From: an uncultured Candidatus Saccharibacteria bacterium
GTDB lineage: Bacteria > Patescibacteriota > Minisyncoccia > Phycocordibacterales > UBA12079
Assembly (NCBI GenBank): GCA_964608745.1
Contig: CAZSPC010000002.1
Coordinates: 1-54,454 of the forward strand
Length of the DNA stretch: 54,454 bases
Reading direction: 5' to 3'
Shown here: piece by piece, positions 1,281 to 48,737 of the stretch
Layout of the letters: each line of letters begins with the position of its first letter
How positions within the stretch are numbered: the first letter of the stretch is position 1
Notes under the pieces: model-generated
What the model was told of the DNA's origin: nothing
Seen by the model: the letters and a program-made list of their open reading frames with translations, nothing else
The model's database searches: none
Program-made: the position numbers and the translations under genes

Positions 1281-1976
1281 ATGATAGCAAAAACTGAATT
1301 AAAACAAGAAGCAATAAAATTAAGAAAAAAAGGAAAAACATATTCCGAAATTTTAGAAGAAGTTCCTGTGGCGAAATCCACTTTATCTTTGTGGTTGAAG
1401 GAGGTTAATTTATCAAAATCACAAAAACAGAGAATAACGAAGAAGAGGATTGAAGCTAGTCGAAGAGGAGCTAAAAAAAGAAAGGAACAAAGGATTGAAA
1501 TTACAAAGGTAATCTATGAAAAATCAGAGAAAGAAATAGGAAAACTTTCGAAAAGAGAGTTGTGGTTAATTGGAATTGCTTTGTATTGGGCAGAAGGAAC
1601 AAAAGAAAGGGATTATCGACCTGGCCCATGTATTGACTTTATTAATTCTGATCCATATATAATTTTAATTTTTTTAAAATGGTTAACTGATGTTTGTGAT
1701 ATTGATAAAGAAAGAATTATTTTAAGATTATTTATTCATGAAAATAATAAATATAGACTTAATAATGTAATAGATTATTGGTTGCTTCTAACTGGTTTTT
1801 CAAAGATAGATTATGTCTATTTTAAAAAACATAGTGTAAAAACTACTAGAAAAAAAGTAACAAATAGTGTATATTATGGAGGATTAAATGTGCGAGTTAG
1901 AAAAAGCTCTGAGCTTGTTAGAAAAATTGCAGGTTGGTCAAAAGGTATGGGTAAAAATTATTGCCGGATCGTCTAA
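1281..1976 (+). CDS. N-terminal HTH protein with a possible LAGLIDADG-like (homing-endonuclease-like) C-terminal region
   Basis: HTH-like segment YSEILEEVPVAKSTLSLWLKEV, then a basic coil, then LWLIGIALYWAEGTKE resembling a LAGLIDADG motif. The last 15 nt overlap the tRNA-Gln 5' end. Confidence 0.5.
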   Translation: MIAKTELKQEAIKLRKKGKTYSEILEEVPVAKSTLSLWLKEVNLSKSQKQRITKKRIEASRRGAKKRKEQRIEITKVIYEKSEKEIGKLSKRELWLIGIALYWAEGTKERDYRPGPCIDFINSDPYIILIFLKWLTDVCDIDKERIILRLFIHENNKYRLNNVIDYWLLLTGFSKIDYVYFKKHSVKTTRKKVTNSVYYGGLNVRVRKSSELVRKIAGWSKGMGKNYCRIV

Positions 1977-2033
1977 TTGGTAGGACTGCGGATTTTGGTT
2001 CCGCCAATCTAGGTTCGAGTCCTAGTCCGGCAA
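1962..2033 (+). tRNA. tRNA-Gln (anticodon UUG)
   Basis: Hand-folded cloverleaf: acceptor TGCCGGA/TCCGGCA, D stem GTCT/GGAC, anticodon stem GCGGA/TCCGC with loop TTTTGGT, T arm CTAGG-TTCGAGT-CCTAG. No CCA is encoded. Confidence 0.9.
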
Positions 2034-2482
2034 CTACGACAAATTAAAATACCGATAGAGGTATTTTAATTTTGGCGTCATTTTAGTCGGACTAGAACTC
2101 GAAAAGCGCAGGCAAAGAAAAATTTTGTAAAAATTTTTCAATTTGCCGAGCTGGGGTCGCGAATACTTAGTAGATTTGAGTGTGAAGCATGAAAAATATA
2201 CTTAGTGATTTGTGACCAAGTCCTAACCCGGCCAACATAAAACACTTAAACCCAACGCATAGCATTGGGTTTAAGTGTTTTGGTTGGCAGGTCGGCTCGA
2301 ACCGAGCGAAATATATTTTTCGTAGTGAAGCGGAGAAAAATTTGAGCGAGCGGGACAGCGAGTTCTTGATGAAAAACGAACTTTCTAAGGTTAACCAGTA
2401 ACCAGGCCGGTAGGCTAGGTTATTGGGTAACCGAAAGTTTATTTTTCATTTAGAACTGGCGTCGAGTCCCTGTTCGGCAACA
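2034..2482 (+). repeat. tRNA-linked array of hairpins and structured units
   Basis: Layout is hairpin (2041-2072), unit S1 (2074-2236), hairpin (2239-2281), unit S3 (2282-2482). The units end in AAGTCCTAACCCGGCCAA and GAGTCCCTGTTCGGCAA, which resemble the tRNA-Gln 3' end GAGTCCTAGTCCGGCAA. The S1 core is homologous to a unit at 46763-46935. Confidence 0.75.
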
Positions 2483-14449: not shown

Positions 14450-17161
14450 ATGTTAATTTCATACAACTGGATAAATAAATATTTTGACAACAGATTGCCA
14501 AAACCAAATGAATTGGTGGAGATTTTGAACTCCCACGCTTTTGAGGTTGAGAGTGTTGAGGATTTATCTCAAAGATTTAATAAAATTGTTGTTGGGCAGG
14601 TTGTGGGTGTGGAGAAACACCCTGACGCGGATCGTTTAAGTGTAGCAAGGGTAAATACAGGAAGTGAAGAATTGCAAATTGTTTGTGGTGCCTCTAACCT
14701 AGAAAAAAATCAAAAAGTTCCGGTTGCTACTGTGGGAGCTATTTTACCTGATGGGTTTGAAATTGGAAAAGCAAAATTACGAGGCGTTGAATCAAACGGA
14801 ATGATTTGTTCTGAGAGTGAACTTGGTTTAGCAAAAGAATCAGAAGGAATTATGGTGTTAGATGAAAGTGCAAAGATTGGACAAAATTTTGCTGAATACT
14901 TAAATTTAAACGACACAATTTTAGATATTGATGTTTTGCCAAACAGAGCCCACGACTGCCTTTCACATAGAGGAATGGCAAAAGAAATTGCCATCTTAAC
15001 CGACCTAGAGCCAGAAATCAAAAAAAGTGGGGTACCTGGTACCCCACAAACCGACATCAAATCATCTATTGTTGTGAAAATTGAAGATGAAAAATTATGC
15101 CGAAGATATATTGCTGTTGAAGTTCAAAATATTGAGGTAAAAGAATCTCCTGAGTGGCTTAAAAAAAGTTTAGAGTCAATTGGTCAAAGATCAATCAATA
15201 ATATTGTTGATGCAACTAATTATGTGATGTTTGACCTCGGTCAACCCCTACACGCCTTTGACAGAGAAAAATTATCGGGCGGAAAGATTATAGTTCGAAA
15301 TGCAAAATCAGGTGAAAAAATTACAACCTTAGACAAACAAGAAGTAGAATTAGATGAATCTGTTTTGATCATTGCAGATGAACAGTCTCCTTTGGCAATT
15401 GCTGGAGTAAAAGGTGGAGATAAAGCAGAGGTGGATAAAAATACAAAAAATATCGTATTAGAATCTGCAAACTTTGACCCAACTAGTATTAGAAAAACTT
15501 CTCGTCGATTAAATATTCCAACAGATTCTGCTAAAAGGTTTGAAAACGAAATTAGCACCGAATTGGCTGGTGTTGCAATGGATGAGCTAGTTGCTTTGAT
15601 AAAAGAAGTTGCTGGTACAAATGATACTCAATTTGGTGTTAAAAATGATGTTTATCCAAGAAAGCCTAATTTATACAAAGTGGGAGTTTCTACCGACGAA
15701 GTGAACAAATTGCTCGGTACAAATATTTCTGATAAACAGGTTGAAGAAATTTTAGATAGGTTTGGGTTTGAATATGAAAAAATTAACCCACTTGAAAAAG
15801 TTTTGGAATTAGCACCAACATTTGTGGGTGTGCCGTATAAATTAGGAGCAAGTGTTACCTATGACGCACCGAATAAATTTGATTGCTCATCCTTTGCTTC
15901 ATACCTATTTGCACAAGCGGGAGTTTCAATTCCTAGAATTTCAATCGACCAATACCTACTTGGAGACCGGGTCTCCAAGTCTGGGTTGCGAGCGGGGGAT
16001 TTAATTTTTGCTAATACGGGCGAAGGAAAAATTCATTATGAATCGGTAGAATTTTTGTCAGGCACGAAAATAGAAGAGGGGGTTGATCACCTAGGGGTTT
16101 ATTTGGGTGACGGTCAGGTGATTCATTCTTCTCGTTATAACAAAAATGGAGTTGGGATAGGAAAAATTGAAGATTTCGATCAGTTTAAAAACGTTGTTGG
16201 ATACAGGAGGGTGGTTGAAAAAGGCGCTAAACGGTATATGGTTACAATTCCATATGAGAGGATGGATCTGCGAATTAAAGAAGACTTAATTGAAGAAATT
16301 GGACGGGTTTATGGTTATAAAAATATTGAGTCAATTTTGCCGGAAAGTATTGGAGAGCCAAAAATCAATAAAGTTTTTTATTACTCCAACAAGGTTAGAA
16401 AGATTTTAGGAGAAATTGGTTTTAGTGAAGTGCAAACATATACTTTTGGTGATAGGGGTGAGGTTGAAGTACAAAAGCCTCTCGCGAGTAATTTAGGTTG
16501 TCTAAGGACTAATCTGACCGATGGAATTCAGAAAAGTTTAGATTTAAATCTCAAAAATGCACTGTTATTAGGACTAGATGAAATAAAGATTTTTGAAATT
16601 GGAAAAGTTTTTCCATCTATTGATAGTGAATATACTTCTTTTGCGATTGGTATTCGCTCAGCCAAAAAAATGAAGGCGTCCGTCATTGCGAAGGCGAAGC
16701 GTGTGGCAATCCAGGAAGTTATAAGTATCTTAAATAGTGAATTAAACATTGATTTGAAAGCGGAGGAAAAAGATGGAATTTTTGAAATAAACTTTGACGA
16801 GTTGGTTGAAAAACTTCCCGAATTAGAAAATTATGATGGTGTATTGCCAAAAGAGATCGGTGAAGCCATAAAATATCAAAAAATTTCACCCTATCCATTT
16901 ATGTTAAGAGATATTGCTGTTTGGTTGCCGAATGATAAGAATTCAGATGATTTATTGGCAATAATTACAGAAAATGCGGGAGATTTATTGGTAAATACAA
17001 AATTATTTGATACTTACGCACCCGAGGGCGAAAACAGGACATCTTATGCTTTTAATCTTGTTTTTCAATCAGGTGAAAAAACTTTAACCGATGATGAAGT
17101 AAATAAAATTATGGATAAAATTACGAAAGAGGTTGAGAAAAATGGTTGGGAAGTGAGGTAA
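14450..17161 (+). CDS. pheT: Phenylalanine--tRNA ligase beta subunit carrying an inserted NlpC/P60 domain
   Basis: It has the tRNA-binding domain (VVGQVVGVEKHPDADRL), B3/4, B5 (VSTDEVNKLLG...ILDRFGFE / VTIPYERMDLRIKEDLIEEIGRVYGY) and a C-terminal FDX-ACB-like end. Residues about 446-595 match the NlpC/P60 pattern. Confidence 0.95.
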   Translation: MLISYNWINKYFDNRLPKPNELVEILNSHAFEVESVEDLSQRFNKIVVGQVVGVEKHPDADRLSVARVNTGSEELQIVCGASNLEKNQKVPVATVGAILPDGFEIGKAKLRGVESNGMICSESELGLAKESEGIMVLDESAKIGQNFAEYLNLNDTILDIDVLPNRAHDCLSHRGMAKEIAILTDLEPEIKKSGVPGTPQTDIKSSIVVKIEDEKLCRRYIAVEVQNIEVKESPEWLKKSLESIGQRSINNIVDATNYVMFDLGQPLHAFDREKLSGGKIIVRNAKSGEKITTLDKQEVELDESVLIIADEQSPLAIAGVKGGDKAEVDKNTKNIVLESANFDPTSIRKTSRRLNIPTDSAKRFENEISTELAGVAMDELVALIKEVAGTNDTQFGVKNDVYPRKPNLYKVGVSTDEVNKLLGTNISDKQVEEILDRFGFEYEKINPLEKVLELAPTFVGVPYKLGASVTYDAPNKFDCSSFASYLFAQAGVSIPRISIDQYLLGDRVSKSGLRAGDLIFANTGEGKIHYESVEFLSGTKIEEGVDHLGVYLGDGQVIHSSRYNKNGVGIGKIEDFDQFKNVVGYRRVVEKGAKRYMVTIPYERMDLRIKEDLIEEIGRVYGYKNIESILPESIGEPKINKVFYYSNKVRKILGEIGFSEVQTYTFGDRGEVEVQKPLASNLGCLRTNLTDGIQKSLDLNLKNALLLGLDEIKIFEIGKVFPSIDSEYTSFAIGIRSAKKMKASVIAKAKRVAIQEVISILNSELNIDLKAEEKDGIFEINFDELVEKLPELENYDGVLPKEIGEAIKYQKISPYPFMLRDIAVWLPNDKNSDDLLAIITENAGDLLVNTKLFDTYAPEGENRTSYAFNLVFQSGEKTLTDDEVNKIMDKITKEVEKNGWEVR

Positions 17162-40881: not shown

Positions 40882-41427
40882 TGTAACCTCCTTTTAGTTG
40901 AATTAAATAACTCTGAGTTACAAAACTATTCATACTGCTTTAAATTTTTCTTCTGTTTTTTAAGGAAAAATTTAAAGTGTCACGAGAATTTTCTGAAGTT
41001 TTTAGAAACAAAGATGAAAATTTCAGGAAATTCGTAGTAGAAGAGAGTTTTGTAATTTAGAGTAAATAAAGAACAAAAAACCCCATCTCTTCGAGGGTTT
41101 ACAAAAAATATGTACTACTCTCATTCCTCGAAGAGTTATTAATACTATCTATAATTAAGCGACCTGGCTTATTCTCTTAATGAGACATTACAGTTGCGGG
41201 TCAGCCGAGGATTCTCACCTCGTTCGTTAACTATAAATATTTATGGATTTTTACTGAGTTTATTATAGCATAGAAAATAAATAAAACCCCAATACTCAGC
41301 CGTGTTGGGATTTAACTTATTCTAGCTCCGCCTGGTAGATGAAGTTAGAATCTATGTTATGTTGAATAGAGAATAAGAAAACCCGCTCAACGAGAACGGG
41401 AGTTCTTGTTGGCGGAAGTTGTAATAT

Positions 41428-41896: not shown

Positions 41897-42145
41897 GCTC
41901 CGGCGGTAGGACTCCTCGTCCCGCAGTTACTAAGTAAATTTTTCGTGCTTCGCATTCAAAAATAGTAAGTACTGCTGGACGCGGCGCGGCGACAAGCCTA
42001 AATTTTTTCTCCGCTACGCTACGAAAAAATTTATCTTGTATCATACTGCTCGCTAAAGCAAGTGCCTTGCGCCGTTCGAGTCCTGCCCCGAAGGAAAACA
42101 ATAAAGTCCCAATATTTCATATTGGGACTTAATTGTTTTTGCTCC
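41897..42145 (-). repeat. Orphan copy of the tRNA-Asn-linked structured unit plus its hairpin
   Basis: It begins gctccggcggtaggactc, which matches the tRNA-Asn 3' end at 17/18 positions. It is collinear with 46498-46767, including the hairpin aaaacaataaagtcccaatat/atattgggacttaattgtttt. Confidence 0.8.
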
Positions 42146-42250
42146 CTATAGTAGACAAGTTCAGAACACTAAACTGGAAGAAAATTAAAAGAGAATTAGA
42201 GTTTTCGGGTATTTTTGAGTTACTTGCGAAAGAGGAGTTTCAGAACTAAT

Positions 42251-42790
42251 TTATAAAGTTTTTAAGTATTCTTCAAAAAATGCTTTATCTCTGATTATAT
42301 TAAATGCAGTGTTGTAAAATTCAACCTCTCCATTTTTAACTTTTTGCTCTTGTTCTTCTAAAATTTTTAGAATTTCATCTTTATCAAACCAAACTACATT
42401 TAGCTCGTTTTTCTTTTCGTCTTCTGTTCTCGTGTCTTCGTTTGCTTTTTTAATTGTTTTCACAAGAAAACAAACTGTTTCGTATTCTTTTTTGCTTCTG
42501 TTTCTGAATTCGTGAATTCTACCAACTTCTTTTATCACTTCAACTTCAAAATTAACTTCTTCATCACACTCTCTGATAACTTCTTTTTCTAAATCTTCGC
42601 TTTCTGCACCGCCTCCAGCAAGTAAATAGAAATTGTGAACAGGGTTAGTAACAAAACCAAATTTACCCTCGCCATTTTGAACGATTGCTTTCACAGTAAC
42701 TCTTTTTTCAAAACTCTCTGGAGTTTCAAATTCTGGATTTTTGAAGATATCTTTGTCTTCTAGTGTTGTTATATATTTCACAGAAAACAT
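42251..42790 (-). CDS. Nudix hydrolase
   Basis: Nudix box GGGAESEDLEKEVIRECDEEVNF. Confidence 0.85.
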   Translation of the reverse strand: MFSVKYITTLEDKDIFKNPEFETPESFEKRVTVKAIVQNGEGKFGFVTNPVHNFYLLAGGGAESEDLEKEVIRECDEEVNFEVEVIKEVGRIHEFRNRSKKEYETVCFLVKTIKKANEDTRTEDEKKNELNVVWFDKDEILKILEEQEQKVKNGEVEFYNTAFNIIRDKAFFEEYLKTL

Positions 42791-42847
42791 TGTAACAAAA
42801 AACAGGTGTTTAGGTAATATGTCTACCTAAACACCTGTTATAGAGAT

Positions 42848-43486
42848 TTATATTTCAAACTTAATCCTCGGTAATGGTTTATCTAAAATTATTTCGTCCT
42901 TAATTATATCCATTACAGAAACGTAACAATTCGGAGGGTTTGCTAAATAGCGAAAATCTTCATCGCTTATATTTAACAAAGATTTCGCTATAACTCTTAA
43001 AGCAAATCCGTGGGTAAAAATAATTACACACTCAGGATAGTTTGGTTCTTTTCCTTCGGATAGAGTTTTTTGAGCAAAGAGATGAATTTTTTGAACAAAC
43101 TCGGACGAGTTGTCTCCGTTAGGGAACTTGTAAAACAAAACACCTGCACGGTAACGCTCTTGCTCAATTTCTTTAAGGTTGTCCTTGTTGGTATCACCCC
43201 AGTTCAGGTTTCGGATAGACCTTTCATTTTGGATTTCAAACCTTATAGAGTTAAACAATGAGCAAAAAAGCTGTGTTGTTTGTAATACTCTGTAAGTCAA
43301 AGATGTAAAGACTTTTACATCTTCATAGTCCGAAATCAAAGGTTCTATTTTTTCGGCTAGTTCATAAACTTGCCTTTTGCCAAGTTTCGTTATTGGTACA
43401 GTCTCGTTTTTATACTTGTTTTTGATGTTTGGGTTGATATCCTCTTTAGATTGAGCGTGCCTAATTAAAATAATTCTTTTAAGCAT
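42848..43486 (-). CDS. Histidine phosphatase (PGAM-like) family protein
   Basis: ILIRHAQS (RHG-type motif) and IIFTHGFALRV. Confidence 0.8.
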   Translation of the reverse strand: MLKRIILIRHAQSKEDINPNIKNKYKNETVPITKLGKRQVYELAEKIEPLISDYEDVKVFTSLTYRVLQTTQLFCSLFNSIRFEIQNERSIRNLNWGDTNKDNLKEIEQERYRAGVLFYKFPNGDNSSEFVQKIHLFAQKTLSEGKEPNYPECVIIFTHGFALRVIAKSLLNISDEDFRYLANPPNCYVSVMDIIKDEIILDKPLPRIKFEI

Positions 43487-43496
43487 TTCTCTGCTC

Positions 43497-44510
43497 CTAC
43501 TTTTTATTACTTATGTAGTTGTGGACCGCATAAGTAAAGGTTTTCTCAAGGTTTGGTTTTTCAAATACTTTTTTCCAACAGTCCTTATCTTCTGTGAAGA
43601 AAAGGGATGATTTCTCTAGTGCGTATTGACCAAAGCTAACAAATTGAAATTCTAAAAGATAGAATTCGTTTTGTTTATTTGCGATGTCAAAAGACGCAAA
43701 AGGGACATTGAAGAATTTAAAAACCGCTTTAGCGTAATCTAGTAGTTCAGTTGGTGGCTCTTTTACGAACTCTAGCAAACCACTACCGCTGGCTCGGAAA
43801 TCATTATTTCTGTTTCGTCTTTTCAAGACATAATACTTGTTATCGTAAACTAGTACCTTGTAATCGAAAGACAGTCCAGAGATAAAGTTTTGAGTTATAA
43901 ATTTTTTTCTAAAGTTTGATATTGGCTTATATCCTTTACCACTTATCAAACCACCTAAAAATCTCCTAAGGTTGATGAGTGAAAAAGTGTAAGAAATGAG
44001 ACCTGCCGAAAAAGTAGATTTCTTTTTTGACTGGCTGAAAAATACACCCCTACTCCTTGAGCCAGCACTCTGTTTAAGAACTACAGGTTCATTTTCTGCT
44101 TGCTCTTTAAATTCTTCCAAAACCCCAAACTTTTTTGTTTGTATGTTTTGAATAGGGTTAAAGCTAGATATATCCCTAAGTATTTCCATAAACACCTTGT
44201 TGTGATGAGCTCTAAACCTGGAAAAGTCAGGGATAAGGATTGCTCCTGCTAGTTGTAAACCAAGAAGAATATCCTCTATATAGTCTTTATAACTTAACTC
44301 AGGGTCTTCTGATGATTGGTACAATACAAAAGAATTTTTGTATTTTGATGACATAAAATCAACTTCCGAAAATTTTTCTATAAAGACTACATATCCTAAA
44401 AACTCAAACAGACTTTTTATTGCTAAAAAGTCCATACTTCCCGCAACTTCTTTTGTTGAAGAATAAAAAGTATTCCTATAATCAATCAAAAGAAAAATTG
44501 TTTTCTTCAT
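43497..44510 (-). CDS. ATP-grasp ligase (RimK-like)
   Basis: VVLKQSAGSRSRGVF, DYKVLVYDNKYYVLKRRNRNNDFRASGSG and FDIANKQNEFYLLEFQ. Confidence 0.7.
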   Translation of the reverse strand: MKKTIFLLIDYRNTFYSSTKEVAGSMDFLAIKSLFEFLGYVVFIEKFSEVDFMSSKYKNSFVLYQSSEDPELSYKDYIEDILLGLQLAGAILIPDFSRFRAHHNKVFMEILRDISSFNPIQNIQTKKFGVLEEFKEQAENEPVVLKQSAGSRSRGVFFSQSKKKSTFSAGLISYTFSLINLRRFLGGLISGKGYKPISNFRKKFITQNFISGLSFDYKVLVYDNKYYVLKRRNRNNDFRASGSGLLEFVKEPPTELLDYAKAVFKFFNVPFASFDIANKQNEFYLLEFQFVSFGQYALEKSSLFFTEDKDCWKKVFEKPNLEKTFTYAVHNYISNKK

Positions 44511-44758
44511 CTAAAACCTCCATATATATAACTTATTGTAATGTTCTGTTCAATTTCCTGGCAAAAACATACCATACAGATAATACAGTAGTCAACGGTA
44601 TTTGTTTAAAATTGGAAGAAAATTAAGTCTGAATTGGAGTATAGTGGTATTTTAAAGACGTTGGAAAACCAGAGACTTCAGAACTTTTGTTAGTTCTTTT
44701 AATAAATTATATTATTGAGTTTATCTAAGGTTACCCCAAAGAGTAACCTTTTAGGTGG

Positions 44759-44890
44759 TTAGTAATAAATCTTACGAACCTCTCTAGTCGTAGTAGCGGG
44801 ATGTCTTTCAGCATACGCTTTAGTTACAATCCTACCAGTCCGACTATCACGATAAATAACTATCGTCCTAAATCGCTTAGTTTTAATCAT
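44759..44890 (-). CDS. 43-aa basic ORF (MIKTKRFRTIVIYRDSRTGRIVTKAYAERHPATTTREVRKIYY)
   Basis: Translated by hand from an ORF below the track cutoff. A hairpin aaggttac/gtaacctt follows it. No SD was seen. Confidence 0.35.
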   Translation of the reverse strand: MIKTKRFRTIVIYRDSRTGRIVTKAYAERHPATTTREVRKIYY

Positions 44891-45115
44891 AGCGTTTATG
44901 AATTAACTAATAATACCACTACTTTTTCGGTAGTGTGCTGAAGCTACAAAAGTAGGACACCGTTTCTCTTGAGATAACCTTAGATAAATTCAAAGAGCAT
45001 CTTTCTTATCTTTATATTGAATTATATTGTATTGTAAAGTAAAGTAAATAAGAACAAAAAGTTATCTACATCAAAAAATTGATATGTAAAGCATTGTCAA
45101 GTATAATTATTAACA

Positions 45116-45355
45116 ATGAATAAATATAAAATATGTTCATATCCGTTACAAGATGGTCGTTGGGGACCTGCTTTTAAAAAACCCGTTGTCTCAGATGGAA
45201 AATCTGCAACATTTTCAAGCCCTACTGAGTTTGGTATCTACTTTAAAACAAAAGAAGAGGCGGATGAGTATGTGATTTTTTATTTAAAAGAAAATGGAAT
45301 AAATGAAATTGATATTTCTGATGAAAAAGAAAATAACGGCGATTATGAATTATAA
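45116..45355 (+). CDS. Small hypothetical protein
   Basis: 79-aa ORF with a TATAAT-like box about 15 nt upstream. Confidence 0.45.
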   Translation: MNKYKICSYPLQDGRWGPAFKKPVVSDGKSATFSSPTEFGIYFKTKEEADEYVIFYLKENGINEIDISDEKENNGDYEL

Positions 45356-45362
45356 TAAAAAT

Positions 45363-45539
45363 ATGGAAAGAGAATTTTATACAGCTGAGGAATTGGCTGA
45401 AAAACTACGAGTAAACATTATGACGATTTATCGTTATATAAAGGCAGGAAAACTAAAAGCTTACAAATTGGGTAAGGAGTTTAGGATCGGTAAAAAAGAA
45501 TTTAATAGTTTTTTAAAAAAATCAAAAATTATTAATTAA
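45363..45539 (+). CDS. Excisionase-family HTH DNA-binding protein
   Basis: YTAEELAEKLRVNIMTIYRYIKAGKLKAYKLGKEFRI. Confidence 0.7.
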   Translation: MEREFYTAEELAEKLRVNIMTIYRYIKAGKLKAYKLGKEFRIGKKEFNSFLKKSKIIN

Positions 45540-45558
45540 TTAATTAATTAAAAATAAT

Positions 45559-46359
45559 ATGAAAAATTTTTTAGATACAAGAAACACAATAATACTAATA
45601 TTGGTTGTTGTTGTGGTAGTTCTTATCACTTCCTATTTGAAAAACAATACGAATAATAGTGATAATAGCCTTTCTGGTATAGAAAGTAATCTTGTTAAGC
45701 TTAATAAGGATATGGAATTTTATAAATACTTGAGTATTTATAAAAGTTTGTTAGATGACGAAGAAAGTAAGTTGGTTGATGAAAGGTCTTCAAAAATAAA
45801 TGAGGAGCTTGCAGATGAAGACTCTAAAATAGTAGAAGCACTGACTCTTTTTATTGTGAATGAAATTATGAAAGACGAGAATTCAAAAAAAATAATACTT
45901 GATTTAAAAGACAAAGTAGATGATTTGGTAAAAAAATCAGAGATTGACGAAAGTGTTTTATTTACCAAAAACACAGAGTGTGCAAAATTTTCTTCTGACA
46001 TAAAGGAAGAATTATCAAAAAAATATAAATCAACATCAACAGTTACAGAAACAGAGGAATTAAATTTTATTTTTTATAGTCCCGAATTAAATACCTGTCT
46101 TTACTCTACTAGTTATAATTACGATTATTCTAATTATTCCAATAGAGAAAACCCCTATTATTCAAAAGATAGTTATAGAGTTTACGAGGTATCTTCAAGT
46201 AACCCAATACAAAAATATCCAAGTTATTATTATAAATATCCTTATTTAAGTGAAGACGAAGCTGATAAGTCTGCTGAAAATGGCTTAATTGGATATAAGA
46301 AATTTATTCTTGAGAATTCTGGCTATAACGCTAAATTATTAAAAGACATAAATTATTAA
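45559..46359 (+). CDS. Membrane-anchored protein with an acidic coiled region and a Tyr-rich C-terminus
   Basis: TM helix ILILVVVVVVLITSYL. Function unknown. Confidence 0.55.
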   Translation: MKNFLDTRNTIILILVVVVVVLITSYLKNNTNNSDNSLSGIESNLVKLNKDMEFYKYLSIYKSLLDDEESKLVDERSSKINEELADEDSKIVEALTLFIVNEIMKDENSKKIILDLKDKVDDLVKKSEIDESVLFTKNTECAKFSSDIKEELSKKYKSTSTVTETEELNFIFYSPELNTCLYSTSYNYDYSNYSNRENPYYSKDSYRVYEVSSSNPIQKYPSYYYKYPYLSEDEADKSAENGLIGYKKFILENSGYNAKLLKDINY

Positions 46360-46368
46360 AAGTAATTT

Positions 46369-46455
46369 ATGAAAGCGGTAATCTTAGCTAGAGTATCAAC
46401 AGAAGGGCAAAGAGAGGCAGGAAACTCACTTCCTGCTCAGCCTGAACACAAATGA
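46369..46455 (+). pseudogene. 5' fragment of a serine recombinase gene
   Basis: MKAVILARVSTEGQREAGNSLPAQ matches the catalytic N-terminus (RVST..Q...SL..Q). The frame stops after 28 codons, where the tRNA-linked repeats begin. Confidence 0.7.
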
Positions 46456-46497
46456 GTTAAAAAATAAAGGTAAGTGTATCCTGCGGATTCTGTTGAA

Positions 46498-46984
46498 GTA
46501 GGACTCGTCCCGCAGTTACTAACTATTTTTTTCGTCCTACGGACTCAAAAATAGTAAGTACTGCTGGACGCGGCACGGCGACAAGTCTAAATTTGAAGTA
46601 AAGGAGTATCGATAGGGTATTGATACCCTATCGATACCCCTTTACTTTAAATTTATCTTGTATCATACTGCTCGCTAAAGCAAGTGCCTTGCGCCGTTCG
46701 AGTCCTGCCCCGAAGGAAAACAATAAAGCCCCAATATTTCATATTGGGACTTAATTGTTTTTGCTCCGGCGGCAGGACTCGGTCACGAGTTACTAATTAT
46801 TTTTTTCGTCCTATGGACTCAAAAATAATAAGTACTCTCGACCCCAGCTCGACTGTTTCTTTCACTTCGTTTCAGAAACATGCCTGCGCTTTTCGAGTCC
46901 TGACGCAAGGTGTGCAGACACCTTGCTCCGCTCGGATCCAAAACAACAAAACAGCCCTACAAAAAGTAGGATTGTTTTGTTGTT
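46498..46984 (-). repeat. tRNA-Asn-linked array of hairpins and structured units
   Basis: Read on the minus strand, the layout is hairpin (46984-46938), unit B2 (46935-46763), hairpin (46762-46717), unit B1 (46716-46498). B2 ends in 19 nt identical to the tRNA-Asn 3' end. Confidence 0.8.
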
Positions 46985-47060
46985 GGCTCCGGCGGCAGGA
47001 CTCGAACCTGCGACCCAGCGATTAACAGTCGCTTGCTCTACCAACTGAGCTACGCCGGAA
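46985..47060 (-). tRNA. tRNA-Asn (anticodon GUU), CCA encoded
   Basis: The reverse complement folds as TCCGGCG-TA-GCTC-AGTTGGTA-GAGC-A-AGCGA-CTGTTAA-TCGCT-GGGTC-GCAGG-TTCGAGT-CCTGC-CGCCGGA-G-CCA. Confidence 0.93.
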
Positions 47061-47266
47061 TGTTACAATATTCAATTTTAAATTTAATTCCATGCGTAGT
47101 GATGTTTTTCGCAAGCGACTGTAAAAGGATTTGCTCTTCCCTTTATCGTCCTGTCTCACTTCGTTCGACTTGGACGATTTCCTCACTTTGTTCGGAACCA
47201 CCTGAAAACCTTAAACGGTTTTCAGCCAACTGACCATACGCCGGAATGTTACAATATTCAATTTTC
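47061..47266 (-). repeat. Duplicated tRNA-Asn 5' end plus upstream flank, with about 146 nt between the copies
   Basis: ccaactgagctacgccggaatgttacaatattcaatttt (47042-47080) is repeated as ccaactgaccatacgccggaatgttacaatattcaatttt (47227-47266). Confidence 0.8.
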
Positions 47267-47372
47267 AAAATGAACTTCTATATCTTATCAAAAAAACAGA
47301 AAATGTGAAGAGTTTGGTTTTACTAATGTAGAGGTGGTATAATCTAATTATTAAAACTAATTCAGAACAATT

Positions 47373-48266
47373 ATGAAAAACACAATTATTTTAATCTTAC
47401 TAATTATCATCGGTTTTGGTGGGTATTATTTTTTAAAAAATTCATCGGAAAATCAAGAATCCCAAAATCAAATAAATACTGAAACAAATCAAAACTCACA
47501 GGCGACCACAACGGTTGAGGATAAAACAAAAACTATTATCGGAAAATCTGTTGGGGGCGAAGATATCGTTGCTTATCACTACGGAGAGGGGGAGACGGAA
47601 GTTTTATTTGTTGGAGGAATTCACGGAGGTTATGGCTGGAATACTGCTTTACTGGGATACGAAGCAATGGATTATCTAAAAGCTAATCCGGATATGATTG
47701 CAACGAGTACCAAAGTAACAATCATCCCGGTTCTAAATCCAGATGGTTTAGAAAAAGTAGTTGGTACAACAGAAAAATTTGACTCAACCACCGCACCGAC
47801 AAATACAGAAAAAATTACAGAAGGTCGGTTCAATGCAAGTGAGGTTGATTTGAATCGAAACTTTGATTGCGATTGGGCTTCAGAAGGTAAGTGGCAAAAC
47901 AAAACAGTTAGTGGAGGAACAGAGGTATTTTCAGAACCGGAAGCAAAAGCTATCAAAAATTATGTAGAAAAAAATAATCCAAGTGCAGTTGTGGTTTGGT
48001 ATAGTGCGGCGGGAGGAGTTTACTCATCAAGTTGTCACAATGGAATTTTGGAAGAAACAAAAGACCTAACTAATGCCTATGCTGATGCGTCTGGTTACAA
48101 AGGATATGATGAATTTGAGTCATATGAAGTAACAGGTGATTTAACTAATTGGTTGGCTAAAATAGATATTCCGGCAATTAGTGTACTTTTGAGTAATCAT
48201 GAAGATGTTGAGTGGGAGGAGAATAAAAAGGGTATTGAAGCAGTGCTAAATTACTTTGATAAATAA
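47373..48266 (+). CDS. M14-family carboxypeptidase-like protein, probably non-catalytic
   Basis: TM anchor and DLNRNFDCDW. Positions equivalent to the metal ligands of the paralog read HGGYGW and VWYS instead of HGGYEW and FWHS. Confidence 0.7.
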   Translation: MKNTIILILLIIIGFGGYYFLKNSSENQESQNQINTETNQNSQATTTVEDKTKTIIGKSVGGEDIVAYHYGEGETEVLFVGGIHGGYGWNTALLGYEAMDYLKANPDMIATSTKVTIIPVLNPDGLEKVVGTTEKFDSTTAPTNTEKITEGRFNASEVDLNRNFDCDWASEGKWQNKTVSGGTEVFSEPEAKAIKNYVEKNNPSAVVVWYSAAGGVYSSSCHNGILEETKDLTNAYADASGYKGYDEFESYEVTGDLTNWLAKIDIPAISVLLSNHEDVEWEENKKGIEAVLNYFDK

Positions 48267-48272
48267 TTCACC

Positions 48273-48391
48273 TTCGTCTTTGCGAGCGAAGCGTGGCAAT
48301 CCAGGCTTTTGCTTGCTTTGGCAAGCAGAATATTTAGGTTCGCCAAGGCGAACCAACGTCTGGATTGCTACGCTTCGCTCGCAAAGACGAA
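48273..48391. repeat. Composite GC-rich palindromic element
   Basis: The arms are ttcgtctttgcgagcgaagcgtggcaatccag and ctggattgctacgcttcgctcgcaaagacgaa. They enclose two small hairpins. Related half-sites lie at 12048-12078, 16676-16714 and 38441-38473. Confidence 0.85.
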
Positions 48392-48426
48392 CCTCCTCAG
48401 ACGGTTCGTCTTGAAGTTTAGTAAAA

Positions 48427-48681
48427 AATAAAAACCCCGTATAATCACAAAAAGTGATTATACGGGGGTGGGAACTGGTTCGAGAAGCATATCCCACAAT
48501 TTGTTTACTTCTCGAGAAGACCACATTTTTCGCCCTCACCCACGGGTCTCCATACGGGGAGGTAGCTATCCCTGTTTATCCTCATTGCGACCGGGAAACG
48601 TCATTGCAATAAGACCAAGCTGTTGGCGGATACTAACCGGTGCCCGCTTGGCGACACCAGTTTGCCGGACCATCAATTTCT
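48427..48681 (-). ncRNA. Stand-alone structured RNA candidate of about 255 nt, class not identified
   Basis: On the minus strand the promoter is TTGACA (48715-48710)-N16-TGcTATACT (48693-48688). The body is about 50% GC by eye with several hairpins. The terminator is ccccgtataatcac/gtgattatacgggg followed by a U-run. No credible ORF is present. Confidence 0.6.
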
Positions 48682-48737
48682 ACGAGAAGTATAGCATACC
48701 AAAATTATTTGTCAAGCACTTTTTTAAGTTTTAAACT

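Follow-up and report, generated by a model that had tools for sequence, protein, structure and literature searches.

The stretch of DNA analysed here, called the window below, comprises 54,454 nucleotides of contig CAZSPC010000002.1 (positions 1 to 54,454, forward strand) from assembly GCA_964608745.1 of an uncultured Candidatus Saccharibacteria bacterium, and this study concerns a family of small, structured, non-coding units that stand behind its tRNA genes. To our knowledge, the Candidate Phyla Radiation (CPR), or Patescibacteria, have minimal genomes with few recognised mobile elements or regulatory RNAs. The window has a G+C content of about 33% and carries housekeeping genes, among them those of RelA/SpoT, PheS/PheT, GyrB, a class I aminoacyl-tRNA synthetase and TruB. 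Two tRNAs, tRNA-Gln and tRNA-Asn, were called in it by both ARAGORN and an Rfam scan. Units S1 and S3 lie behind the former, units B2 and B1 behind the latter, and unit A some kilobases further on (Table 1).

Table 1. Coordinates of the host tRNA genes, the units and their parts in the window. R1 and R2 are covariance models of the unit family, and E is the expectation value.
Feature	Positions	Strand	Score or remark
tRNA-Gln(UUG), host of S1 and S3	1962-2034	+	ARAGORN; Rfam tRNA model 58.9 bits
Hairpin H1, perfect 13-bp AT-rich arms AAATTAAAATACC / GGTATTTTAATTT, terminator-like	2041-2072	+	
S1, 5' inverted copy of tRNA-Gln positions 54-73	2084-2103	+	17-mer match
S1 core, three-way junction	2092-2226	+	R1 95 bits (E 6e-27), R2 92.8 bits
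S1, degenerate 3' direct copy of the tRNA-Gln end, AAGTCCTAACCCGGCCAA	2218-2235	+	10/13
Hairpin H2, perfect 17-bp arms, separating S1 from S3	2239-2281	+	
S3, three-way-junction RNA-like unit with tRNA-Gln-like flanks	2283-2480 (start approximate)	+	Fold and architecture
Unit A, same subtype as B1	41897-42086	-	R1 39.6 bits, R2 54.6 bits
4.4-kb gene segment between B1 and A	42087-46497	-	Bracketed by direct repeats of hairpin and unit
B1, second unit of the array	46498-46708	-	R1 54.6 bits, R2 68.9 bits
B2 core and tRNA-Asn direct copy	46759-46903	-	R1 110 bits, R2 109.5 bits
B2 acceptor complement TTGGATCCGAGCGG, then hp, a 9-bp hairpin with CUGC loop, AGCAAGGTGTCTGCACACCTTGCGT	46903-46941	-	
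Hairpin after tRNA-Asn, 19-bp arms, terminator-like	46942-46984	-	
tRNA-Asn(GUU), host of B2 and B1	46984-47059	-	ARAGORN, Rfam

An initial annotation had described the order behind tRNA-Gln as hairpin, S1, hairpin and S3, which is borne out by the coordinates, and had proposed that both units end in a tRNA-Gln-like 3' end and begin with its inverse complement. In the inverted copy of S1, the reverse complement of TAGTCGGACTAGAACTC agrees with the tRNA-Gln 3' 17-mer at 14 of 17 positions, and the end of S3 (2464-2480) agrees with it equally well (14/17), while the direct copy which closes S1 is poor. Allowing up to three mismatches, this 17-mer occurs at three sites in the window against a chance expectation of 0.01, namely the tRNA itself, the S1 inverted copy on the minus strand, and the S3 end. 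H1 and its flanks form an imperfect long palindrome (2014-2103) in which the 3' half of the tRNA pairs with the start of S1, and the inverted copy of S1 pairs better with tRNA-Gln (8/9) than with the unit's own direct copy (6/9). Between the two copies, the core of S1 consists of helix P1, helix P2 (GCGC..GGCA-hairpin-GCC..GAGCU) and helices P3/P4 (GGUCGCGAA...UUUGUGACC). The minimum-free-energy fold of S3 is likewise a three-way junction (z = -7.2). However, S3 was rejected as a sequence homologue of the other units, as it reached only 7.4 bits with R1 (E = 2.8) and was not reported by R2 (E>1), and its sole BLAST similarity is a 31-nt apex hairpin which it has in common with unit A; S3 is taken as a relative by architecture only. 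On its 5' side, tRNA-Gln is overlapped over its first 15 nt by a 231-aa open reading frame (ORF) at 1281-1976 (+). This ORF has more than 2,500 homologues, the few named ones being from Parcubacteria lineages, which marks the organism as a member of the Patescibacteria/CPR; its only Pfam match is a weak one to HTH_23, one source labels a homologue 'homing endonuclease', and its overlap with tRNA-Gln(UUG) is kept in all four relatives examined.

A unit behind tRNA-Asn, 44 kb away, was said to share conserved core blocks with S1 and to end in the tRNA-Asn 3' end instead, and both statements proved correct: the block ACTCGAAAAGCGCAGGCA is identical in S1 and B2 (chance expectation 0), and the direct copy of B2 (46763-46780) equals the tRNA-Asn end at 18 of 18 positions. 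Unit A, which lies 4.4 kb from B1 with no tRNA before it, has a tRNA-Asn-like end at 17 of 18 positions, and the 18-mer is found at three window sites (the tRNA, the B2 end and the A end), where chance predicts 0. B1 belongs to a subtype with P3 formed by GUCCAGCAG/CUGCGGGAC, and its direct copy is cut off at GAGTCCTAC. A 76-nt near-perfect palindrome (AAAGTAAAGGGGTATCGATAGGGTAT..) at 46584-46659 is inserted at the apex of the P2 hairpin of B1 and is missing in the otherwise similar unit A. The internal 9-bp helix that had been noticed with a different sequence in each unit corresponds to P3 in the model alignments, its sequences in S1, in B2 and in A/B1 being compensatory. The segment enclosed by B1 and A terminates in ..GGGAGCAA and encodes a NUDIX protein, a histidine phosphatase, a 337-aa protein without assignment, a DUF7274 protein, an HTH_17 excisionase-type helix-turn-helix (HTH) protein and a 266-aa protein without assignment.

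Copies of the units are by no means confined to this window. Scanning species-representative genomes with a pattern of the 5' block gave 11 matches, four of them true (two metagenome-assembled genomes (MAGs) of Saccharibacteria and two of an unclassified 'bacterium'), and the other seven were discarded as chance matches in GC-rich coding DNA. A two-block pattern which leaves aside the flanks derived from T stem and acceptor was then used on metagenomes and returned 41 contigs, all 41 true. Among viral contigs a first loose pattern gave eight matches, all by chance in coding DNA, and the specific two-block pattern gave none. With the covariance model R1, 71 units were identified in 46 sources, namely the window and 45 other contigs that stem from MAGs of Saccharibacteria and other CPR lineages and from metagenomes, at many tRNA and tmRNA (transfer-messenger RNA) loci, which answers the question whether further copies stand at other tRNA genes; R2 is a broader model. 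The units constitute a Patescibacteria-wide family of structured elements, about 110-170 nt long, with S1, B2, B1 and A as members.

The consensus fold was built on a MAFFT alignment of 25 units, which is independent of structure. In it, P1 is the helix of the two tRNA-derived ends; P2 reads GGCGC-A-GGC...GCC-GAGCC and is capped by a variable hairpin; P3/P4 reads GGUCGCGA...UCGUGACC and includes a conserved G.U pair as well as a distal hairpin that varies; and GAAA and GG are the junction nucleotides, so that the core follows the order AAGGCGCAGGC-hairpin-GCCGAGCCGGGGUCGCGA-hairpin-UCGUGACC, with the conserved junction adjoining the base of P1. In this alignment 90.9% of the paired cells are complementary, against 80.4% in shuffles (none of 500 reaching the observed value) and about 34% with slid partners, and 18 pairs have changed on both sides, which gives good support for covariation; the sequence and structure of the core are kept across genomes of 33% to 60% GC. 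The apices of the hairpins are often GNA-triloop mini-hairpins (GCGAAGC, GCGUAGC, GCAAAGC, GUGAAGC) with G-A / G-A on either side, for example at 2180-2192 and 46862-46875 of the window and in loci L009, L032 and L034 (L numbers denote our contigs); the same motif is present in the trailer loops of tRNAs without a terminator hairpin (L013, L016, L025).

The placement of the units is highly regular. A called tRNA or tmRNA gene on the same strand precedes 47 units at a distance of 18-136 nt; tmRNA is the host at 6 loci, and the tRNA hosts cover 16 specificities (Arg, Leu, Ser, Glu, Val, Pro, Trp, Lys, Thr, Phe, Gln, Gly, Met, Ala, Tyr and Asn). Nine units come after another unit in an array, and most of the remaining ones lie at most about 250 nt from a contig end, several of them with a truncated tmRNA or tRNA tail. 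Among the fetched loci with enough downstream sequence, 47 of 66 tRNA/tmRNA genes are followed by a unit, a proportion which is biased because each locus was chosen for having one.

Going 3' from the gene, the parts follow in the order of tRNA, hairpin H, complement of the acceptor, an optional hairpin hp, complement of the T-stem 3' strand and T-loop (ending in ..TCGAA), core, and a direct copy running from tRNA C56 to the 3' end. Both copies correspond specifically to the gene in front of them: a direct copy of 11/13 or better is found with the cognate gene in 20 of 47 units (15 perfect) versus 0.4% of non-cognate comparisons, a perfect inverted T-stem copy in 21 of 47 versus 2.3%, and an inverted acceptor copy of 7/8 or better in 21 of 47 versus 1.8%. 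The inverted copy spans tRNA position 54 to the 3' end and often goes on through the trailer. Its acceptor part occurs at two discrete positions, either abutting the T-stem complement or about 25 nt upstream, and in the latter case the gap is occupied by the hairpin hp (conserved, 9 bp, CUGC loop; 11 of 26 cases), which marks the acceptor/T boundary. Where it goes on through the trailer, the inverted copy makes up, together with H, perfect palindromes with arms of 22-28 bp which start 5-12 nt inside the tRNA. Across loci the hairpins take the form of A-run, stem and T-run, and a terminator scan called those at 46971-46955 and 46752-46726, and none in 1800-2600, where the stems are AT-rich. Quasi-palindrome correction, a known mutational bias, may have produced these trailer-spanning perfect palindromes as by-products. 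At the orthologous tRNA-Ser loci of L023 (4389-4479) and L032 (1637-1727), an acceptor base pair has changed from A-T to G-C; the direct copy follows the tRNA 3' strand there and the inverted copy retains the old base.

Selection on these helices was assessed from their numbers of Watson-Crick, G.T and A.C pairs. Core helices P2-P4 contain 1325 Watson-Crick, 95 G.T and 4 A.C pairs; the tRNA-proximal hairpins H 708, 14 and 1; and hp 209, 11 and 0. This excess of G.T over A.C shows that the helices of core, H and hp are maintained in one strand, that of tRNA-sense polarity, which is most simply RNA, a specific DNA strand being also possible. For P1, i.e., the inverted copy against the direct copy, the numbers are 33 G.T and 32 A.C, and for the 12-nt T-arm part of the inverted copy against the tRNA they are 451 Watson-Crick, 8 G.T and 10 A.C. 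Moreover, the upstream tRNA is a better pairing partner of the inverted copy (8.1/9) than the unit's own direct copy is (6.9/9), and the direct copy is lost in several tmRNA-linked units. In view of the absent wobble bias, the better fit to the tRNA and the lost direct copies, the flanks behave as decaying sequence copies and not as a helix kept by compensatory change. The inverse complement noticed at the start of S1 is real; selection on the pairing of the unit ends is unsupported.

Two interpretations had been offered for the layout, namely miniature non-autonomous elements that integrate into tRNA 3' ends and leave serial scars, and structured RNAs co-transcribed with the tRNA and processed through a tRNA-like end. 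Each is partly supported, and the data do not separate them. The targets, the repeat beginning in the T-loop, the symmetrical decay of the flanks, the arrays, the near-identical cores at different tRNAs and the four relatives without a unit agree with the first, serial scars as the whole explanation being unsupported; the one-strand G.U bias in core, hp and H, the lack of room for a promoter and the tRNA-like geometry of the stems agree with the second.

We tentatively favour the view that the unit is a non-autonomous, duplicative structured-RNA element which homes to tRNA and tmRNA genes on their 3' flank and is oriented as the gene is. The unit would insert or be copied at the segment from T-loop to 3' end, either generating or requiring the target-derived flanks, and the downstream direct copy would be the displaced or duplicated tail of the tRNA; if so, the arrays would record serial events. 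Expression would come about by read-through from the tRNA promoter, and the junction beside the base of P1 is predicted to be the recognition site of a trans-acting factor or to be itself catalytic. Several observations on the relation between copies are in line with such spreading. Cores including their fast-evolving hairpins are 94-95% identical between a unit behind tRNA-Leu (L045) and units behind tmRNA (L026, L037), 93% identical between tRNA-Phe and tRNA-Ser, and 89% between tRNA-Val and tRNA-Glu on one contig. Homology between loci runs from ..GAAAGG to GUGACCGA, whereas hairpin, inverted copy, hp and direct copy are each particular to their locus; units at different genes are thus homologous in sequence within the core only. 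The flanks decay symmetrically. No unit stands behind tRNA-Gln(UUG) in four relatives which match the window in the synteny of the 231-aa ORF and tRNA-Gln. Furthermore, repeats of units bracket gene cargo, as B1 and A do in the window. In L051 (447-1780) and L028 (3382-4650) a 190-nt direct repeat, which extends from the 3' part of hp over the unit, its direct copy and the following hairpin into the start of another unit, lies on both sides of about 1 kb with an NYN-domain ORF on the opposite strand. In L060 (122-290), a tmRNA-linked unit has a tRNA-Leu-like direct copy (GAGTCCCTCCTACGGCACCA) and a core 91-95% identical to that of the unit behind tRNA-Leu at L045 3978-4140, which suggests recombination between units of different genes.

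There are, however, a number of points that weigh against a mobile element. All-against-all clustering of 431 neighbouring ORFs revealed no recurrent mobility family, and the search for a linked protein gave only families of synteny, such as the gene upstream of tmRNA and MiaA near tRNA-Trp; no recombinase, reverse transcriptase or transposase is linked to any unit by this clustering or occurs among the 33 window ORFs tested against Pfam, and three ORFs near units in L027, L045 and L051 show no recombinase. Copies within one genome are mostly diverged, with no burst of identical ones, and near-identical cores at different tRNAs could stem from gene conversion between existing units. Orthologous units are retained between diverged genomes (L023, L032) where the intergenic flanks are unalignable, which fits a host function equally well. 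Other sequencing runs provided same-strain contigs, in which neither an empty nor a polymorphic site was found, and those that span S1 and S3 have exactly the window's sequence. Contig ends fall at window positions 2030 (four contigs) and 2245 (one contig). One sample has a contig ending at 2030 together with another that starts at 2001, the two overlapping by 30 nt; the ends at 2030, considered as an empty site, are better explained by a de Bruijn-graph junction within the conserved tRNA. We know of no mechanism that would copy a 21-nt target in both inverted and direct orientation. Finally, a terminator-like hairpin precedes most units, and their transcription is presumed.

A close rival, though in our estimation somewhat unlikely, is the explanation in which the unit is no selfish element but a tRNA-shaped non-coding RNA encoded by the host. 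Here hp would replace the D and anticodon arms, the three-way junction would replace the T-loop, and the stems would be copied from the neighbouring tRNA; the RNA is predicted to be co-transcribed with that tRNA, released by RNase P and RNase Z, possibly provided with CCA, and to act as a decoy, chaperone or sensor, its copies spreading rarely and being homogenised by gene conversion. Intact units such as L009, L023 and B2 have acceptor-like and T-like helices, and the position of hp, exactly at the acceptor/T boundary, is the one from which a tRNA body would emerge. This explanation also draws on the RNA-type covariation with its G.U bias in core, hp and H, on the constant strand without space for a promoter of its own, on the conservation of orthologous units amid unalignable flanks, on the missing mobility genes among the 431 neighbouring and 33 window ORFs, and on the 47 of 66 tRNA/tmRNA genes with a unit, at loci preselected for one. 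Nevertheless, the helix of inverted and direct copy which it needs has no wobble bias, is often degenerate and lacks its direct strand in several tmRNA-linked units, and the inverted copy fits the upstream tRNA better than the 3' end of its own unit. Nor are the units recognised as tRNAs: ARAGORN in pseudogene mode (-ps), the check recommended in the initial annotation, called only the two true tRNAs of the window, and the Rfam tRNA model had no match on units at E<=10. The relatives without a unit at tRNA-Gln are not readily accommodated, and a family matched to 16 specificities would still require a copying mechanism. As compared with the tRNA-like domain of tmRNA, viral tRNA-like structures, mascRNA and YrlA, the units have in common the end-paired acceptor-like and T-like helices and plausible processing by tRNA enzymes; they differ in that a 100-nt junction takes the place of the T-loop, the stems copy the neighbouring tRNA instead of a fixed identity, and the mimicking helices are without detectable selection on pairing.

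Since the stems copy the acceptor and T stems of the host, a co-transcript can fold in two equivalent ways, with the unit forming a tRNA shape by itself or exchanging strands with the host tRNA. For tRNA-Asn with B2 the predicted minimum-free-energy fold is of the latter kind, a strand-swapped 'super-tRNA' (z = -11), and that of the tRNA-Gln and S1 transcript is strand-swapped as well (z = -8.4). On these folds one may base the idea that the unit is a cis-regulatory 3' extension which controls maturation of the upstream tRNA or tmRNA, the inverted copy sequestering the 3' half of the tRNA, the direct copy serving as the decoy that frees it, and the core sensing a ligand or protein. The near-perfect complementarity of the inverted copy to the tRNA 3' half, contiguous with H in arms of 22-28 bp, and the likeness of the junction to an aptamer core speak for it. 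Yet the pairs of inverted copy and tRNA have no G.U bias (8 versus 10), the arrays of two or three units, the solitary unit A and the unit-flanked cargo are left unexplained, sequestering an essential single-copy tRNA would be costly, and termination at H would block transcription of the switch; taken together, we regard this idea as improbable.

A more conventional explanation is that the units are functionless, decayed attachment (att) scars of classical islands carrying an integrase. Islands and prophages with integrases reportedly use tRNA and tmRNA genes with sublocations at the T-loop and the 3' end (attributed to Williams, 2002). Like them, the units target the 3' part of the gene, leave the gene intact, have a distal direct repeat from T-loop to 3' end, and form tandem arrays. 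The decay of the direct copy and the excisionase-type HTH gene in the 4.4-kb segment between B1 and A would fit too. In contrast to islands, however, the units have no linked integrase among the ORFs tested and measure 200-250 bp, not kilobases; islands have one family per tRNA species, whereas here a single family serves at least 16 specificities plus tmRNA; the units have an extra inverted copy of the target; and the conserved part is a covarying single-strand structure and not an arm of protein-binding sites. The pattern is also missing from viral contigs, phages and plasmids. Further copies and covariation argue that the units are not mere decayed att scars, and the conservation of the core from 33% to 60% GC, with its compensatory changes and strand-specific wobble bias, has largely refuted this explanation, which we consider very improbable.

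In respect of known families, gathering-threshold scanning of the window with Rfam 15 found no curated family that matches the units, the unmatched classes including hammerhead, twister-sister, hepatitis delta virus (HDV)-like ribozymes, group I/II introns, tmRNA, Y RNA, ROOL, GOLLD and HEARO, and permissive scans of both loci gave only chance hairpin matches to microRNA models. BLAST against phages and plasmids returned no match to the units. The core was not found in the known systems compared, and the family is apparently previously undescribed; this novelty rests on negative database evidence and on the part of the literature that was covered, in which no relevant description was found, and an earlier description may exist. 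Some specific candidates were rejected as well. By eye, there is no CUGANGA of the hammerhead, no domain V hairpin of group II introns, and no TaqI-like TCGA symmetry of the junctions, as the right one reads ACCGA. A primer-binding site for mature tRNA does not fit, since the inverted copy tracks the genomic trailer and not CCA, with L037 pairing through ...CCACCGAAATTT. A T-loop intron was dismissed as well: splicing is unnecessary, given that the first tRNA copy is intact in every case and that direct copies are degenerate in many units.

There are partial resemblances to several other systems. Like integron cassettes with their attC sites, the units form arrays of short promoter-less modules with imperfect palindromes acting as folded single strands, some modules having an ORF (here the NYN gene of L051); but no integrase was seen among the window ORFs tested, R/L core boxes are apparently lacking (no attC model was run), the palindromes are built from the local tRNA tail, and it is to tRNA genes that the arrays are anchored. 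Complementarity to the host sequence, as in the units, is also known from the R2 HDV-like ribozyme with 28S rRNA, from the internal guide sequence of group I introns and from the exon- and intron-binding sites (EBS-IBS) of group II introns. These systems too lie in or behind a structural RNA gene and depend on read-through, as we infer for the units, and class C group II introns insert behind terminators just as the units directly follow a terminator-like hairpin; in contrast, the units have no reverse-transcriptase ORF and no ribozyme or intron core known to Rfam. Miniature inverted-repeat transposable elements (MITEs) and REPINs (paired repetitive extragenic palindromes) are, like the units, small, non-coding, multi-copy and rich in palindromes and, as presumed for the units, dependent on trans-acting factors. 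Unlike them, the units are strictly site-specific, with target-derived, locus-variable terminal repeats, diverged copies and a conserved structured core, and they do not fit the definition of MITEs by element-borne terminal inverted repeats, a short target-site duplication and many near-identical copies.

If the favoured interpretation of a homing element is carried one step further, the structured RNA or its single-stranded copy would itself carry the specificity, which would make the family a new mobile class. The inverted copy of about 21 nt would then be a guide or pairing arm to the host tRNA tail, the three-way junction would be a ribozyme or a handle for a protein, and the chemistry of insertion would regenerate both target copies. 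We regard this extension as doubtful; if true, it would amount to a programmable homing module free of protein genes, riding on tRNA transcription in CPR bacteria.

What can be stated for the contigs examined is that a unit follows a large share of tRNA and tmRNA genes and borrows the last 21 nt of the gene in both orientations. If it is mobile, it would be a small protein-less tRNA-homing element whose targeting rule could be read from sequence; if it is a host RNA, it would be a new class of tRNA mimic, connected with tRNA maturation or with defending the tRNA pool of host-dependent organisms. In either case a new RNA family with a working covariance model is at hand, and it explains why 'tRNA-like' fragments and assembly breaks recur behind tRNA genes in CPR MAGs.

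Several other features of the window were noted. Upstream of tRNA-Asn, at 47060-47270 (-), a structured piece of about 185 nt (z = -3.4) is flanked by two copies of a 43-nt repeat, in which a promoter-like TTGAAAATTGAATATTGTAACAT is joined to the tRNA's first 9 nt. In appearance this piece is either a counterpart of the 3' units on the 5' side or a decayed duplicate of the tRNA. A GC-rich non-coding stretch at 48240-48700 (-), flanked by two M14-like peptidase genes, has a promoter-like TTGACA...TATGCT and a terminator-like hairpin, and against Rfam at E<=1 it gave chance hairpin matches only and no family. About 650 nt downstream of unit A there is an adenosylcobalamin (AdoCbl, cobalamin) riboswitch aptamer at 41107-41252 (-) with 62 bits. 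In the gene at 14450-17161 (+), an NlpC/P60 peptidase domain is inserted in the phenylalanyl-tRNA synthetase beta chain at residues 460-572.

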